Origin: Bdellovibrionales bacterium
GTDB taxonomy: Bacteria > Bdellovibrionota > Bdellovibrionia > Bdellovibrionales > UBA1609
Length of the DNA stretch: 64,000 bases
Reading direction: 5' to 3'
Assembly (NCBI GenBank): GCA_020435005.1
Contig: JAGRAE010000001.1
Span: 609-64,608 of the forward strand
Part shown: positions 6,919 to 30,337 of the stretch, in pieces
How positions within the stretch are numbered: the first letter of the stretch is position 1
Layout of the letters: each line of letters begins with the position of its first letter
The notes under the pieces: generated by a model
Told to the model about the DNA's origin: nothing
Database searches by the model: none
The model's input: the letters and a program-made list of their open reading frames with translations, nothing else
Program-made: the position numbers and the translations under genes

Positions 6919-8175
6919 ATGAAAAGCCTTACTGAAGGTGCCCTATACCGAAACACCCTGAGAACTTTAGAGACTGCTGGCGAAATTATTAACTTGAATA
7001 GAAATGCACTTGAAAGGCTAAAACTACCCAGGCGAGCTATCGCTGTTTCCGTTCCGGTTAAAATGGATGATGGCAGAGTGCAAATTTTCCCCGGTTATCG
7101 CGTACAACACAATCAAGCTCTAGGCCCTTTCAAAGGCGGATTGCGCTATCATCAATCGGTAAATTTAAGCGAAGTTGCAGCTTTATCGATGTTAATGACT
7201 TTTAAAAACTCATTACTAGGCTTACCCTTAGGCGGAGCTAAAGGTGGAGTAACTGTCAACCCCAACCAGCTCTCTACAAACGAACTTGAACATTTGACGC
7301 GTCGATTTACTTCAGAACTTAGCCCTTTTATTGGTCCCGATGAAGACATTCCTGCACCCGATGTCGGTACTGATTCGCAAACAATGGCCTGGATGCTAGA
7401 TACCTATTCTATGGAATCTGGTTTTTCTCAAACAGGGGTCGTAACAGGTAAACCTATTGAAATTGGTGGGTCACAAGGACGCGAATGTGCAACGGGCTTA
7501 GGTGTTGTCTACGTTACTGAAAAAGCCTTAGCTACGAGAGGCAAAAAAATCCAAGGAGCCACCATGGCCATTCAAGGTTTTGGTAAAGTGGGTATGCATG
7601 CTGCTATTGAAGCCTTTGCCCTCGGTGCTAAAGTAGTGGCTGTGAGTGATGTTACTGGAGCTATTTATCATCCTGAAGGTTTAAATATAACGGACGTAAA
7701 AAAATATATTGATGAAAATAAAGTTCTTAAAGGCTACCCCAATGCTCAAACTATTGACGGAGAAGAGCTCTTAGAATTAGACGTTGATGTTTTAGCGCCC
7801 TGTGCTCTCGATGGTGTTATTAACAGCACCAATGTTGATCGCATCAAAGCACCTATAATTGTAGAAGGCGCTAATGGACCTGTAACGGTCAATGCCAGTG
7901 ATGAGCTCTACAAACGCAATACAATGATTATCCCTGATATTTTAGCCAATGGCGGTGGAGTTGTCGTTAGCTACTTTGAGTGGGTTCAAGATATTGTTTG
8001 GTTGTTTTGGCACGAAGATGAAGTTCGTCAAAAGTTAAAAACTATTATGTATCGTTCTTTTGATACTGTTTTTGACTTTCACAAAGAAATGGGCACCAAT
8101 TTACGCCTTTCTGCTATGGGTGTTTCATTGAAACGCCTAGAAAAAGCTATGAAACTTCGTGGTCAAGCTTGGTAG
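6919..8175 (+). CDS. gdhA: Glutamate dehydrogenase
   Basis: GLPLGGAKGG (catalytic Lys region) and the GFGKVG Rossmann motif. I place the start at the ATG at 6919, which has GGAG 8 nt upstream. The track ORF begins at the TTG at 6865. Confidence 0.9.
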   Translation: MKSLTEGALYRNTLRTLETAGEIINLNRNALERLKLPRRAIAVSVPVKMDDGRVQIFPGYRVQHNQALGPFKGGLRYHQSVNLSEVAALSMLMTFKNSLLGLPLGGAKGGVTVNPNQLSTNELEHLTRRFTSELSPFIGPDEDIPAPDVGTDSQTMAWMLDTYSMESGFSQTGVVTGKPIEIGGSQGRECATGLGVVYVTEKALATRGKKIQGATMAIQGFGKVGMHAAIEAFALGAKVVAVSDVTGAIYHPEGLNITDVKKYIDENKVLKGYPNAQTIDGEELLELDVDVLAPCALDGVINSTNVDRIKAPIIVEGANGPVTVNASDELYKRNTMIIPDILANGGGVVVSYFEWVQDIVWLFWHEDEVRQKLKTIMYRSFDTVFDFHKEMGTNLRLSAMGVSLKRLEKAMKLRGQAW

Positions 8176-9156
8176 ATGAGTTTTAAACCTTGGTTATTAT
8201 TACCTCCCAAGCTAGCTCATGATTTGAGTCCTTTTGCCTTAAACCTTATAAAACATATGGTCACTTCTACCAATGATGATTGGCAGAGTTTTACCTGGAG
8301 AAATTTATATTTCCGCAATCCTTTAGGAATTGCTGGTGGTGTTGATAAGAATGTGGAACAAGTGGATGCTTGGCACAGATTAGGTTGTGGTTTTATTGAA
8401 GTGGGTACAATCACTCCACTGCCTCAAGGCCCCAACCCTGGTAAAATAATGGATAGAGATATTTTACAACGAGCTGTGTGGAATAAAATGGGCTTCCCCA
8501 ACAAAGGTTTAGAGTGGGCAATACAAAATTTAAAAAAACTAAAACGCCCTTTTTATGTTCCTCTATTTGCAAATATTGGCAAAAATAGGAACACTCCCCT
8601 AGAAAAAGCTGCAGAAGACTACAAAAAATGTATTTTAGCTTTAGAGAATTTTGTAGATGTCTTTGTCATTAATATAAGCAGTCCCAATACAAAAAACTTA
8701 CGGGACTTGCTCGCTCCAGATTCTTTAAAGCCATTTTTACAGGAGGTTTTAAGTTCACGTCGACAAAACACCCCCACTTTGCTCAAACTCAGCCCTGATT
8801 TAGATGACGATACATTACAAAACATTTTAAATGTATCCTTAGCAGCTAACATAGACGGCTGGATTTTAACTAATACAACTTTATCAAGACCTTCAAACAT
8901 TTCATTTCCCCAAGAAGGAGGACTTTCAGGCGAGCCTTTAGCCACCACTTCAAAAGATTTTTTAAAAAAATCTTTGCGCTTTTTAGGGGAACATAGACAA
9001 GACAAACTTGTTATTTCTACTGGTGGTATAATGAACGCTGATGATGTCCAAGAACGCATCAGAATGGGTGCAGATTTAGTCCAGGTTTATTCTACTCTCA
9101 TATTTGAAGGGCCTTTTTTCTTTAAAAAAACTTTGAAATGTTTAAAACAGAGTTAA
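8176..9156 (+). CDS. pyrD: Dihydroorotate dehydrogenase (quinone), class 2
   Basis: NPLGIAGGVDKN, FIEVGTITP, INISSPNT and SGEPL motifs. The ATG follows the gdhA stop directly. Confidence 0.9.
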   Translation: MSFKPWLLLPPKLAHDLSPFALNLIKHMVTSTNDDWQSFTWRNLYFRNPLGIAGGVDKNVEQVDAWHRLGCGFIEVGTITPLPQGPNPGKIMDRDILQRAVWNKMGFPNKGLEWAIQNLKKLKRPFYVPLFANIGKNRNTPLEKAAEDYKKCILALENFVDVFVINISSPNTKNLRDLLAPDSLKPFLQEVLSSRRQNTPTLLKLSPDLDDDTLQNILNVSLAANIDGWILTNTTLSRPSNISFPQEGGLSGEPLATTSKDFLKKSLRFLGEHRQDKLVISTGGIMNADDVQERIRMGADLVQVYSTLIFEGPFFFKKTLKCLKQS

Positions 9157-9236
9157 CAATTTTGAAATCAAAAGCTCATCAAGTAGCACACTGTCATACA
9201 TTGAGTTATTAATTTGAAGCAGGTAGTCTTTTTAAG

Positions 9237-9650
9237 ATGACTAAGAAAAAACGGCCCGTATGGGTTCCTGTAGTAACTGGTTTAATAATTAAAAACTCGA
9301 AAGTTTTAATTGGCTGTCGACCACAGGATAAAAATTTATCCGGAAAATGGGAGTTTCCAGGTGGTAAAATCGAACTTTCTGAATCTCCAGAACAAGCTCT
9401 CAAAAGAGAGTTATTGGAAGAATTGGGAATAGATGCTGAAATAGGCCCATTAAAACTTGTTGGAACTCATGCCTACGGAGATACTGGTATTTTGATACTT
9501 TTTTATGAAATAAAATATTGGAAAGGTGAACCTAAAACTCTTTACCATACTGAATTAAAATGGGTAGAATTTAATGAATTAAAGCTCCATCCCCTTCCTG
9601 AAGCAAATGAAAAAATGCTTTCACGAATTTTGGCGGTATTAAATGACTAG
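9237..9650 (+). CDS. mutT: NUDIX hydrolase, MutT-like (8-oxo-dGTP diphosphatase type)
   Basis: Nudix box GKWEFPGGKIELSESPEQALKRELLEELG; 137 aa. Confidence 0.75.
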   Translation: MTKKKRPVWVPVVTGLIIKNSKVLIGCRPQDKNLSGKWEFPGGKIELSESPEQALKRELLEELGIDAEIGPLKLVGTHAYGDTGILILFYEIKYWKGEPKTLYHTELKWVEFNELKLHPLPEANEKMLSRILAVLND

Positions 9651-27169: not shown

Positions 27170-28621
27170 GTGAATTTAATTCTTTGTCTAATTATATTCT
27201 TATCTTTTTTCAGTAATAAAGTATTAGCAGCTGTTGCTTATAGAGGATCTCATCCAATAGCTTGGAGCGGTCAAGAAGTACCTGTATGTTGGGAAAACAG
27301 TCCTGATGGCAGTAACATCTACAAAGAAGTAACACGTGAAGCTATTGAGCAAAGTTGGGAAAAATATTCAACCTTAAAGTTTATAGGATGGGGGAACTGC
27401 AATAACAATTCACGCGGCATTCGTATCCAAATAGCTGATGATAACCCTCATACAAAAGGTCTGGGCAGAGAATTAAATGGTAAGAAAAATGGTATGTTGT
27501 TAAATTTCACTTTCCAAAAATGGAGTCAAAGTTGCGCATACAACAAAGAATCTTGCGTAGCTTCAATAGGTGTACACGAATTTGGTCATGCAGTTGGTTT
27601 TACCCATGAACACAATCGAGGGGATCGAGATCCTATGTGTAAAGAAGAACCACAGGGTCCAGATGGCAATGCTTTTTTAACTCCTTATGACGGTGAATCA
27701 GTCATGAATTATTGTAATCCTGAATACAACAATGACGGGCAACTTAGTGATGCTGATATTGCAGGAATCCAATTGTTATATGGAATTCCATGTGAAAATT
27801 GGTTGCCCCCAAAAAAGAATACTATTCGTTTATATAAAGGACAAAGAGTTCGAGCAATGATTCCTTTTAAAAAAGGATTAGTAACTGCTTTTCAGCAAGG
27901 CGGTATATATTATTCACCAGATGGCGCTGATCCAGCCAAAGCCTGCAGCAATACACAAAAAGTATATAATGGAAAACAAAAAGTTCTAGCTATGATTCCT
28001 TATAAGAGTGGAATTATTACGGCTTTTTCGGGTGGGGCTATTTATTATAGTCCAGATGGAAAAAACCTTGGAGGCGGAGGTAAATCTAAAAAAGTTTATA
28101 ATGGAAATCAAAAAGTTTCTGCTATGATTCCCTGGAAAGAAGGAGTTATCACTGCTTTTTCAGGTGGAGGCATTTATTTTAGTCCAGATGGAAAAAACCT
28201 TGGTGGCAATGGAAAAACAAAATTAATATACCGATCAAATCAAAACGTACTAGCTATGTCTCCTTATAAAAAAGGTTATGTTACTGCTTTTTCAGGTGGA
28301 GGCATTTATTTTACTTCTAGCGGAAAATATCCTGCTGGTGGTGGAGATTCAATAGTTTTATACAATGGCAGACAAACATTACAAACAATGATACCTTATA
28401 AAAAAGGATTAATAACAGCCTTCTCAGAGGGTGGGGTTTATTTTAGCCCAAATGGGAAGGATATTGGCGGTCGTGGAAAAACAAAAAATATCTACGGTGG
28501 ACAACAAAAAGCTACAGCTATTTCGATTTTTAAAAGTGGAATTGTTTCAGCTTTTCAAGGAGGCGGAATTTATTATAGCCCTAACCTTGATTATGTTGGT
28601 GGGTATAATGGAGGCTATTAA
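27170..28621 (+). CDS. Secreted astacin-family (M12A-like) zinc metalloprotease with a C-terminal six-repeat domain
   Basis: Signal peptide, then HEFGHAVGFTHEHNRGDRD, matching the astacin signature HExxHxxGxxHExxRxDRD. Met-turn-like SVMNY. GTG start with GGAGGA upstream. Confidence 0.85.
   Translation: MNLILCLIIFLSFFSNKVLAAVAYRGSHPIAWSGQEVPVCWENSPDGSNIYKEVTREAIEQSWEKYSTLKFIGWGNCNNNSRGIRIQIADDNPHTKGLGRELNGKKNGMLLNFTFQKWSQSCAYNKESCVASIGVHEFGHAVGFTHEHNRGDRDPMCKEEPQGPDGNAFLTPYDGESVMNYCNPEYNNDGQLSDADIAGIQLLYGIPCENWLPPKKNTIRLYKGQRVRAMIPFKKGLVTAFQQGGIYYSPDGADPAKACSNTQKVYNGKQKVLAMIPYKSGIITAFSGGAIYYSPDGKNLGGGGKSKKVYNGNQKVSAMIPWKEGVITAFSGGGIYFSPDGKNLGGNGKTKLIYRSNQNVLAMSPYKKGYVTAFSGGGIYFTSSGKYPAGGGDSIVLYNGRQTLQTMIPYKKGLITAFSEGGVYFSPNGKDIGGRGKTKNIYGGQQKATAISIFKSGIVSAFQGGGIYYSPNLDYVGGYNGGY
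27833..28618 (+). repeat. Six tandem coding repeats of 132 nt (44 aa; the last is 42 aa) inside the protease gene
   Basis: Repeat consensus Y-x-G-x-Q-K-V-x-A-M-I-P-Y-K-x-G-[IV]-[IV]-T-A-F-S-G-G-G-I-Y-[YF]-S-P-D-G-K-N-L-G-G-x-G-K-x-K-x-[VI]. The units begin YKGQRV, YNGKQK, YNGNQK, YRSNQN, YNGRQT and YGGQQK. Confidence 0.9.
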
Positions 28622-28649
28622 TAAATTACCAATTTATAATTCAATTTAA

Positions 28650-29669
28650 TTAGAAATTTTTAGTAATATAATTGTTAAATTCTCCCTGATTTACAACGTT
28701 GCTATCAAAAATCCAAGCTGTAACCAACCCTGCCGGTGTCACATCAAAGGCGGGGTTGTAGACATCACAGTTTTTTGGTGTCCATTCCACTCCACCACTA
28801 CTCACCTGAAAACCTCTTACCTCTTCATTGGCTCTTTGTTCTATAGGAATACTTTTTCCACTAGAACATTTCAAATCTAACGTTGTTACAGGTGCTGCAC
28901 AATAAAAGTCAATATGATGATACTTCGCTGCTAGCGCTAATGAATAAGTCCCAGTTTTATTGGCAAAATCACCATTGGTTGCAATTCTATCAGCTCCCAC
29001 AAGAACTTTTTGGATTTTTCCTTGTGCCATAAGAGCTGCTGCCATATTGTCACATATTAATGTATAGGGAATTCCATACTTTTTTAGTTCCCAAGTTGTT
29101 AAACGTCCACCTTGCAATAAGGGGCGAGTCTCATCCACATAAACATGAATTTTTTTGCCGCTTTCAAATGCCGCTTTAATAATTCCAAGAGCTGTCCCAA
29201 TTCCCGCAGCAGCTAATCCCCCTGTATTACAATGAGTGAGTATGTTGTCGTCATCTTCAATAAACTTTTCACCATTTTTAGCAATACGCTCACACAAGGC
29301 GACATCTTCATAAAAAATATTTTCCGCTTTTGCTATAACTTCATATTTATTAAAAACAGTTTCAAATTGAGTGAGCTTATCAATAGCATACATTAAATTA
29401 ACAGCCGTAGGACGAGACTCTCTCAACTGTTCGGCGGCCCTCATAAATTCACTCTCGCTAGCTCCCTGCTCTGCATACAAGGCTAAACTTAGAGCTGCAG
29501 CTACACCAATAAGTGGTGCACCCCGAACTTTTAACTCTTTAATTGCAATTACCATTTCTTTTGGGTTTTGAATTTGCTCCCAAACTTCATGATTTGGTAG
29601 TTGCTTTTGATCTAGAATTTTTAAAATACCATTAGAATGCTCAATGGAAAGCGCTTTGAGTTCTTTCAC
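28650..29669 (-). CDS. mtnA: S-methyl-5-thioribose-1-phosphate isomerase
   Basis: eIF-2B alpha/beta/delta-like family: VRGAPLIGVAAA, THCNTGGLA, VDETRPLLQGGRLT, GADRIATNGDFANKTGTY. Confidence 0.9.
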   Translation of the reverse strand: MKELKALSIEHSNGILKILDQKQLPNHEVWEQIQNPKEMVIAIKELKVRGAPLIGVAAALSLALYAEQGASESEFMRAAEQLRESRPTAVNLMYAIDKLTQFETVFNKYEVIAKAENIFYEDVALCERIAKNGEKFIEDDDNILTHCNTGGLAAAGIGTALGIIKAAFESGKKIHVYVDETRPLLQGGRLTTWELKKYGIPYTLICDNMAAALMAQGKIQKVLVGADRIATNGDFANKTGTYSLALAAKYHHIDFYCAAPVTTLDLKCSSGKSIPIEQRANEEVRGFQVSSGGVEWTPKNCDVYNPAFDVTPAGLVTAWIFDSNVVNQGEFNNYITKNF

Positions 29670-30337
29670 AACACAATATCTCCCATATTCTTCACAATTT
29701 CTTGTCTGAGATCTTTTAACAAATTCACCTTTTCTTGAGGTAACTCTGTGACTCCACCTAAATTATTTGCCAAATACAAAATTTGTGAACTGTGTTCAAT
29801 GCGCTCCATACCTCTATGAGCTTCTTGAAGATTTTCTCCCCAACACAAAGCCCCATGACGTGCTAGTATCATTACCCGATGTTTTGGTAAATATGGCTCA
29901 ATATTCTGGCCCATTTCTGAAGTTCCAGGAATAGCAAAAGGCACTATAGGAATCGTTCCACAGGCTAATATTAGCTCGGACATAGCTCCACAAGGCAACT
30001 CCGTTAAATCAGGGCGAGCAATAGACCAAGCTATAGCATAGGGGGGATGTGCGTGAATAACTGACTTGGCCTTCTCACAATTTTTGTAGACTTCTAAATG
30101 CATCCACATTTCACTAGAGGGCTGGCCTTTTAATACTTTTCCTTCAATATCAACACAAGCCATATCTTCAACGTCCATGAAGGCTTTCATAACTCCAGAT
30201 GGAGTAATCCAAATTTCTTTATCTGAAATTCGAAAACTGATATTGCCATCTGCAGCTGCCAACATGTTTTTTTCATGTAATCTTTTGCAAATTTTTACAA
30301 TCTGCTTTTTCAGCTTGGTATTTTTATCCTGACTCAT
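29666..30337 (-). CDS. mtnB: Class II aldolase/adducin-family protein, probably methylthioribulose-1-phosphate dehydratase
   Basis: AADGNISFRI and the metal-binding His in VIHAHPPYAIAW. The 4-nt overlap with mtnA suggests the salvage-pathway role. The family call is firmer than the specific activity. Confidence 0.6.
   Translation of the reverse strand: MSQDKNTKLKKQIVKICKRLHEKNMLAAADGNISFRISDKEIWITPSGVMKAFMDVEDMACVDIEGKVLKGQPSSEMWMHLEVYKNCEKAKSVIHAHPPYAIAWSIARPDLTELPCGAMSELILACGTIPIVPFAIPGTSEMGQNIEPYLPKHRVMILARHGALCWGENLQEAHRGMERIEHSSQILYLANNLGGVTELPQEKVNLLKDLRQEIVKNMGDIVL

Follow-up and report, generated by a model that had tools for sequence, protein, structure and literature searches.

A predicted secreted astacin-like metzincin carrying a putative six-bladed propeller of a rare blade family in a Bdellovibrionales genome

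A metzincin protease that carries a propeller as an exosite is a known design, and the matrix metalloproteinases (MMPs) with their hemopexin domain are its familiar example. Within the metzincins, the astacins are characterized by the extended zinc-motif consensus HExxHxxGFxHExxRxDRD and by a Met-turn of the form SxMHY, whose tyrosine is a zinc ligand. Here we describe a gene in which an astacin-type active site is followed by six tandem repeats belonging to a blade family for which there is no curated model. The gene lies in a stretch of 64,000 nucleotides, referred to below as the window, from a Bdellovibrionales bacterium (GenBank assembly GCA_020435005.1, contig JAGRAE010000001.1, positions 609 to 64,608), and is the sole long open reading frame (ORF) at 27170..28621 on the + strand. 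An exact look-up retrieves the 483-residue product as MCB0389656.1, a 'hypothetical protein' from a Bdellovibrionales metagenome-assembled genome. Based on sequence profiles, predicted structures and a survey of relatives, we propose with moderate confidence that the protein is a secreted astacin-like metzincin whose six-bladed propeller, built from a rare blade family, serves in targeting or ligand binding.

The protease domain and its predicted export

The coding sequence and the features of its protease part are:

27158..27163, + strand: Shine-Dalgarno sequence GGAGGA, 6 nt upstream of the GTG (read from the sequence)
27170..28621, + strand: protease coding sequence, complete, 483 aa plus stop, GTG start (ORF list)
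27170..27229, + strand: signal-peptide-like N-terminus, aa 1-20, MNLILCLIIFLSFFSNKVLA, the 60 nt before 27230 (sequence)
27230..27799, + strand: metzincin catalytic domain, aa 21-210 (Pfam, PDB profile matches, AlphaFold2)
27575..27631, + strand: zinc-binding motif HEFGHAVGFTHEHNRGDRD, aa 136-154 (sequence; family-conserved)
27698..27712, + strand: Met-turn SVMNY, aa 177-181, with Met179 and Tyr181 (sequence; family-conserved)

A preliminary description, made from the letters of the window, had reported a complete astacin zinc signature together with SVMNY, and both are read at aa 136-154 and 177-181. The motif HEFGHAVGFTHEHNRGDRD fits the astacin consensus exactly, and the Met-turn keeps the Ser, Met and Tyr of the astacin form, with Asn replacing His. 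By position in the motif, His136, His140 and His146 would be the zinc ligands and Glu137 the general base. In an alignment of 83 homologues, about 65 of which carry the catalytic domain, the zinc motif, the Met-turn and six cysteines (40, 77, 122, 129, 157 and 182) are conserved across the sequences that have this domain: the S, M, N and Y of the Met-turn are each retained in 64-65 of the 83 sequences and the cysteines in 62-65. The earlier term 'astacin-type' is appropriate for the zinc site. The domain as a whole, by contrast, is equally weakly related to astacin and matrixin profiles and has no pro-peptide. Pfam Astacin (PF01400) scores 29 bits (cut-off 22.5) over profile positions 75-103 of 189, that is 29 positions, and Peptidase_M10 scores 24.7 bits, just above its cut-off; both matches are confined to the zinc helix. 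NCBIfam returns sub-threshold matches only, to LegP and other metzincins. A single-sequence search of the PDB finds BMP-1, tolloid-like protein 1, hatching enzymes and astacin at E = 5e-4 to 4e-3, and a profile of the 83 homologues finds MMP-1 at E = 5e-7 and astacins at E = 1e-5 to 1e-3, with BMP-1 and meprins also matched. The full-length AlphaFold2 model has a predicted local distance difference test (pLDDT) score above 90 across most of aa 31-200.

The catalytic family is large, with 407 proteins returned at E <= 0.001 among 8000 candidates scored; a profile search of the six-frame translation of the window found no second copy of the domain. In other bacteria, proteins that share this domain at 45-55% identity continue into FG-GAP/VCBS, ricin-B, tachylectin or other modules, and the domain also occurs without any C-terminal module. 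These interchangeable partners argue for a bacterial metzincin family of its own, whose active site is of the astacin type.

The N-terminus is hydrophobic and resembles a signal peptide, in keeping with the signal peptide assigned in the preliminary description, and cleavage is likely after VLA and before AV (MNLILCLIIFLSFFSNKVLA/AV). Residues 2-17 are modelled as a low-confidence helix in the full-length AlphaFold2 prediction. The two orthologues, P0001 and P0002, also have hydrophobic N-termini, that of P0001 being a classical MRK... signal. Only about 15 residues separate the predicted cleavage site (aa 20) from the first strand (aa 36-41), and P0001 is similar in this respect. As the first strand already begins at aa 36, an N-terminal pro-peptide appears to be absent.

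The repeat array and its predicted fold

The part of the protein that follows the protease domain is made up of:

27821..28618, + strand: predicted six-bladed beta-propeller, aa 218-483, 24 strands (AlphaFold2, Foldseek)
27833..27967, + strand: repeat 1, aa 222-266, 45 aa, loop diverged, carries Cys259
27968..28099, + strand: repeat 2, aa 267-310, 44 aa
28100..28231, + strand: repeat 3, aa 311-354, 44 aa, 75-79% identical in protein and 77-81% in DNA to repeat 2
28232..28363, + strand: repeat 4, aa 355-398, 44 aa
28364..28495, + strand: repeat 5, aa 399-442, 44 aa
28496..28618, + strand: repeat 6, aa 443-483, 41 aa, truncated, without the terminal TxRVY strand

The six head-to-tail repeats cover nt 27833-28618 and share the 44-residue consensus TxRVYxGxQxVxAMIPYxxGVITAFSGGGIYFSPDGxNLGGGGx. 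The count of six given in the preliminary description is correct; the uniform length of 44 residues is not, repeat 1 having 45 residues through one additional codon and repeat 6 having 41. A profile of the 44-position unit recognises six significant domains in this ORF (E = 2e-121), and the next best segment in the six-frame translation of the window reaches E = 1.6. The repeat is therefore far beyond chance, and the window holds no second array. Tandem Repeats Finder picks up no more than the 2.7 copies that are best preserved (period 132, score 401). Pairwise identity between repeats ranges from 34 to 79% in protein and from 51 to 81% in DNA, repeats 2 and 3 being the closest. The earlier statement that the repeats have diverged at the DNA level thus holds for the array at large, but repeats 2 and 3 (27968-28231) are younger or homogenised, with 77-81% DNA identity against 51-71% for other pairs. 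This pattern suggests a later duplication or gene conversion within an older array. When the repeats are compared one by one with those of P0001 or P0002, no diagonal emerges in the identity matrix and there is no positional orthology, so that unit-wise orthology does not date the amplification.

What shape would six such repeats adopt? The preliminary description had suggested one blade per repeat and a count of blades on an AlphaFold model. AlphaFold2, run on aa 210-483 with an alignment of repeat regions from 12 relatives, returns a domain of six groups of four strands, 24 in all, without helices (pLDDT 90.7; predicted template modelling (pTM) score 0.89), in agreement with six blades of one repeat each. 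In each modelled unit the strands are TxRVY, VxAMIPY, GVITAF and GIYFSP, and SPDGxNLGGGGx forms a loop of 12-13 residues. An additional strand, TIRLY (aa 218-222), precedes repeat 1 and is the counterpart of the TxRVY strand that repeat 6 lacks; because the one offsets the other, the total is exactly 24. The same phase is found in P0001 and P0002, both of which keep six repeats, open the domain with TIRLY and lack the final TxRVY strand. In other members of the repeat family the array opens at AMIPY and closes with TxRVY. Such shifts of strand phase are expected for a closed ring.

Foldseek searches of the domain model against the PDB place only propellers among the top matches, at E = 1e-8 to 1e-10, with Ika8, Ycf48 and many WD40 proteins at template modelling (TM) scores of 0.5-0.6. 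The best global fit is to carp fishelectin (PDB 4ruq, 237 aa), with TMq 0.64, TMt 0.72 and a root-mean-square deviation of 4.5 Å; the superposition runs over 264-266 columns against 237 residues, nearly the whole length. We take carp fishelectin to be a multivalent six-bladed lectin propeller. In the viral structure library the matches are to generic propellers only. As indirect evidence from models, these results strongly suggest ring closure.

The blade family and its proposed function

The preliminary description had proposed looking for the repeat consensus in other proteins, and a profile search run exhaustively over 1.84 billion cluster representatives yields 652 proteins at E <= 1e-3, 244 at E <= 1e-10 and 99 at E <= 1e-30. 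With 652 representatives among 1.84 billion, the family is rare. The 90% cluster to which MCB0389656.1 belongs is represented by a 43-aa JGI fragment, which hides the full-length protein from homology search, and further multi-repeat proteins may be hidden likewise behind short representatives. Among 238 members retrieved, two copies per protein are found in 20, three in 84, four in 38, five in 33, six in 33, seven in 27 and eight or more in 3; the long, complete proteins cluster at six and seven copies. A large subgroup of small secreted proteins (among P0144-P0232; for example P0168 of Calothrix, P0167 of Phormidium, P0147 of Ca. Electronema, P0214 and P0228) stands apart. The three-copy class, of about 180-225 aa and mostly secreted, has exactly three repeats plus a degenerate N-terminal half-unit and includes several named cyanobacteria (Calothrix, Nostoc, Phormidium, Dolichospermum); the two-copy class is secreted and 157-170 aa long. 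To judge from their copy number, two- and three-repeat proteins would be unable to close a propeller alone and probably oligomerise.

The array can stand N-terminally, C-terminally or internally. In 78 multi-domain members its partners come from at least ten peptidase families that are unrelated to one another and include Peptidase_M10, Astacin, Reprolysin_3/4/5, Trypsin, S8, C1, C2, A4, M23 and eCIS_core. They also include RTX repeats, a DUF5122 propeller, Ig-like domains and a winged-helix regulator domain. The last is seen in P0123 and P0131, where Trans_reg_C is combined with a predicted membrane-spanning segment and an array of 5-6 copies; from their sequences these look like one-component transmembrane regulators with the propeller as extracytoplasmic sensor. 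The query's own arrangement of catalytic domain and propeller was found again only in P0001 (53% identity) and P0002 (46%). A longer protein, P0018 (40% identity, 71% of the query covered), has a HExxHxxGFxHE domain that matches the astacin profile, together with six repeats. Two cysteines are, by alignment column, confined to the query and its two orthologues, P0018 lacking the pair:

27791..27793, + strand: Cys208, in the linker
27944..27946, + strand: Cys259, in the long loop of blade 1

They are a candidate disulfide, Cys208-Cys259.

To which known repeat family, if any, do the blades belong? The preliminary description did not recognise them as Kelch, hemopexin or FG-GAP, and Pfam indeed gives no match on the repeat region to Hemopexin (PF00045, at E <= 10), Kelch, FG-GAP or tachylectin. 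It had also held that a high-probability match to a known repeat family would tell against a new one, and two such matches were found, one to LGFP in Pfam and one to a WD40 propeller in hhalign, of which LGFP then failed as to membership. Pfam LGFP (PF08310) reaches 44.8 bits, where the gathering cut-off is 22, in five stretches, and 18 of the 78 surveyed members match it as well. Were these genuine LGFP repeats, they would form a cell-wall-anchoring stalk, as at the C-terminus of Corynebacterium MytA, and keep the protease on the envelope of its producer. LGFP domains have about 54 residues, consist of an N-terminal helix and a 3-4 stranded sheet, and act as a stalk in MytA (PMC11299179). The match to the present repeats, however, covers only profile positions ~15-31 of 53 (17 positions; at most 11-37 in other family members), the period is 44 and not ~54 residues, the Leu-Gly-Phe-Pro motif is absent from all six repeats, and the AlphaFold2 model is free of helices. 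Moreover, the lineage of the host is Gram-negative and lacks a wall of mycolate or arabinogalactan. We reject LGFP membership on these grounds (coverage, period, absence of helix and of motif) and regard the anchoring stalk as largely refuted, giving it almost no credence.

The similarity to WD40 goes deeper, and the possibility that the region is a divergent but ordinary bacterial WD40 propeller, a known protein-protein interaction module, deserves more weight, although we think it unlikely. In a phmmer search of the PDB, WRAP-T and Nostoc WD40 propellers come up with E = 3e-16, and one relative is named 'WD40 repeat domain-containing protein' by NCBI. When the domain alignment is compared by hhalign with the WRAP-T unit repeated seven times, the probability is 98.6%; it falls to 0.1% if the AFSPDG motif is scrambled and to <= 26% if all but the motif is shuffled, so that the signal needs both the motif and the remainder of the unit and exceeds a single motif. 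Against membership, Pfam WD40 (PF00400) is silent on the query at E <= 10, with PD40 alone appearing at E = 0.016, and neither GH nor WD dipeptides occur in the repeats. With a profile of one unit, the alignment to WD40 shrinks to a G(I/V)xFSPDGxx(L/I) stretch of 11 residues, worth 2-4 bits per repeat. The hhalign register, in turn, puts WD40 strand B on the glycine-rich NLGGGG loop and leaves the predicted VITAF strand unmatched, while other parts of the unit match SAKe6 in the PDB and PD40 and LGFP in Pfam instead. Canonical WD40 membership is not accepted here, the similarity being centred on a motif, the register inconsistent with the predicted strands and PF00400 silent. The profile signal is nonetheless real, if remote, and the earlier failure to recognise the repeat as WD40 is better put as a separate lineage that may be distantly related to WD40-type blades. 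It could also be argued that the repeats form an open beta-sheet array or solenoid and that repeat symmetry has led AlphaFold2 to a spurious propeller: ring closure is judged from scores, and family members with four and five detected copies exist. We consider this very improbable. A pTM of 0.89 denotes a compact, confident global fold, the model superposes on nearly the whole of carp fishelectin at TMt 0.72, the extra N-terminal strand compensates the missing C-terminal one to give exactly 24, and the long complete members of the family have six or seven copies.

Pfam and NCBIfam produce partial spill-over matches only (LGFP over positions 15-31 of 53, and PD40), none covering the whole repeat, in line with the preliminary proposal of an undescribed blade family. 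Relatives are matched erratically and in part, by LGFP in 18 of 78, by WD40 in 4 and by PD40 in 3, or by nothing. A literature search on the repeat family and on the architecture found nothing specific. We read the blades as a separate lineage within the propeller superfamily, possibly a distant relative of WD40-type blades.

What would a protease gain from such a propeller? In the model that we propose, the gene product belongs to a bacterial metzincin family, would be exported through the Sec pathway and would act as a zinc endopeptidase. Its active site would be of the astacin type, made up of three His ligands, Glu137 as general base and the Met-turn with Tyr181. As no pro-peptide is recognisable, the enzyme may be active once the signal peptide is removed, with no zymogen stage. 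A short, probably flexible linker is predicted to join the catalytic domain to the C-terminal propeller. The latter is most likely non-catalytic and serves in binding: it would keep the protease close to a repetitive ligand or substrate, for which glycans or proteins on the surface of another cell are the candidate class, and the six copies of the conserved SPDGxNLGGGG loop could act as repeated binding sites. The blade family itself behaves as a mobile module found on many unrelated secreted peptidases. A binding role is favoured because the SPDGxNLGGGG loop is the best-conserved part of the blade and provides, once per blade, six candidate sites that are equivalent, like those of multivalent lectin propellers, because the alternative partners of the catalytic domain are largely lectin-type modules, and because a lectin propeller gives the best global structural fit. 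By analogy with the hemopexin domain of MMPs, a protein is a possible alternative to a glycan as the ligand.

Alternatively, the propeller could be a regulatory lid over the active-site cleft, gating or inhibiting the enzyme as in prolyl oligopeptidases and replacing the missing pro-peptide. The absence of a pro-peptide, with only ~15 residues from predicted signal cleavage to first strand, fits this idea, and the clade-specific Cys208/Cys259 pair could staple the linker to blade 1. The full-length AlphaFold2 model speaks against it: overall pLDDT is 87.9, but the linker (aa 212-216) falls below 50, and pTM, at 0.89 when the domain is modelled alone, is down to 0.72 for the complete chain, which argues against a lid fixed over the active site. 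Additionally, the same catalytic domain occurs with many unrelated C-terminal modules or with none, and the propeller accompanies at least ten peptidase folds unrelated to one another, whether before or after them, a distribution that an autonomous binding module fits better. We consider a lid quite improbable and a targeting role of the propeller, for which these fusion statistics speak indirectly, plausible. Several points nonetheless weigh against a secreted protease steered by a binding propeller. The signal-peptide-like N-terminus of the query lacks a basic n-region. Ring closure and domain packing rest on summary scores of models, and the structural matches are generic, with TM <= 0.72 and sequence identity <= 16%. 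The conserved glycine-rich loop could be purely structural. Finally, in about three quarters of the surveyed family members no peptidase partner can be recognised, and the module is thus not specific to proteases.

The proposal of a targeting propeller can be extended, tentatively and with considerable doubt, to the lineage as a whole. The 44-residue blades would build propellers either from 6-7 tandem copies or from oligomers of three-repeat (mostly cyanobacterial) and two-repeat secreted proteins; the product would be a multivalent lectin for a bacterial envelope polymer, repeatedly grafted onto at least ten peptidase families, and here it would steer an astacin-like protease to the prey surface. 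In a predatory lineage, a surface-targeted protease is, speculatively, a candidate prey-attack factor. As at least ten unrelated peptidase families carry the module, it may be a general targeting device for secreted proteases whose ligand is worth finding. Databases label the family inconsistently, as LGFP, WD40, PD40 or nothing, and most relatives are 'hypothetical'; with a model built for the family, several hundred annotations would be put right. The natural two-, three-, six- and seven-copy forms also make a compact test case for the origin of propellers by blade amplification and oligomerisation.

Genomic setting and comparison with known systems

The protease gene on the + strand is flanked by methionine-salvage genes on the opposite strand:

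26095-26946, opposite strand to the protease: MTAP-type phosphorylase gene
28650-29669, opposite strand to the protease: MtnA gene
29666-30337, opposite strand to the protease: MtnB-like aldolase gene

The protease gene is monocistronic and interrupts the methionine-salvage cluster in opposite orientation. Just 28 nt (28622-28649) lie between its stop codon and the convergent stop codon of mtnA, and no terminator-like hairpin was found in them. Promoter and terminator scans gave nothing convincing, and terminator-like sites within the coding sequence are taken as chance. In the corresponding locus of a relative (L005, whose GcvP is 76% identical), the phosphorylase gene directly abuts an Rsm22-like gene (L005 10289-10420), without the protease, mtnA and mtnB between them, and the gene content between gcvP and the phosphorylase gene also differs from that of the window. 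The protease therefore lies in a variable, accessory part of the chromosome. Between gcvP and the phosphorylase gene the window has four consecutive + strand ORFs (19508-26076), three of them without a Pfam match; the exception, 22049-23239, is marked by a prokaryotic N-terminal methylation (pilin-like) motif. The ORF at 23593-26076 (+; 827 aa) is not in the protein collection with that start. In L005 the equivalent interval (7100-9441) is occupied by other genes, one for a ParE toxin and one of the AAA_14 type, which marks this interval as a variable island.

How does the protein compare with described systems? MMPs with a hemopexin domain (MMP-1; PDB 1su3, 1fbl) share the plan of a metzincin, a short linker and an all-beta propeller used as exosite, a parallel already drawn in the preliminary description and apt as regards architecture, since full-length MMP-1 (catalytic and hemopexin domains) is the top Foldseek match of the whole-protein model. 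The global TM score of this match is only 0.23-0.26, however, so we read it as an architectural analogy and not as a close relationship. MMP-1 and the query have in common the C-terminal helix motif LSxxDIxGIQxLYG. They differ in that the hemopexin propeller has four blades whereas six are predicted here, with Pfam Hemopexin silent, and in that the query has an astacin-type zinc site with a Tyr in the Met-turn and no cysteine-switch pro-peptide.

The astacin family (MEROPS M12A), which comprises astacin, BMP-1/tolloid, meprins, hatching enzymes and the bacterial LegP and myroilysin, has a zinc motif of the same form and the same Met and Tyr in the Met-turn, and the sequence matches to it are weak but consistent. 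In contrast, only 29 of 189 Astacin profile positions are matched and the matrixin profile scores about equally; the query lacks the pro-peptide of the aspartate-switch zymogen, has six conserved cysteines and carries Asn for His in the Met-turn.

As for the blades, LGFP repeats of MytA from Corynebacterium glutamicum share with them a hairpin motif of ~17 residues, G-hydrophobic-x-x-F-x-G-G-x-I-Y-x-S-P, and this motif is why the Pfam score exceeds its threshold; MytA differs in period, in its combination of helix and sheet, in forming a linear stalk, and in the LGFP motif itself, which the query repeats do not have. The 'recently amplified' bacterial WD40 propellers, Nostoc WRAP (PDB 2ymu) and the designed WRAP-T (7bie), have the FSPDG motif, a T-x-(K/R)-(V/L)-(W/Y) strand and a period of ~42-44 aa in common with the query, in which a glycine-rich loop takes the place of WD40 strand B and an additional VITAF strand is present. 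Carp fishelectin and the tachylectin-type propellers (4ruq) provide the best global structural match and are of similar size, but at 12% sequence identity there is no relationship at the sequence level. Parallels to the protease also exist in the M12-like metallopeptidases of myxobacteria, Bacteroidota and other bacteria with FG-GAP/VCBS, ricin-B or tachylectin modules: their catalytic domain is 45-55% identical and their C-terminal binding modules are likewise swappable, whereas the C-terminal module of the query is a predicted propeller of 44-residue repeats.

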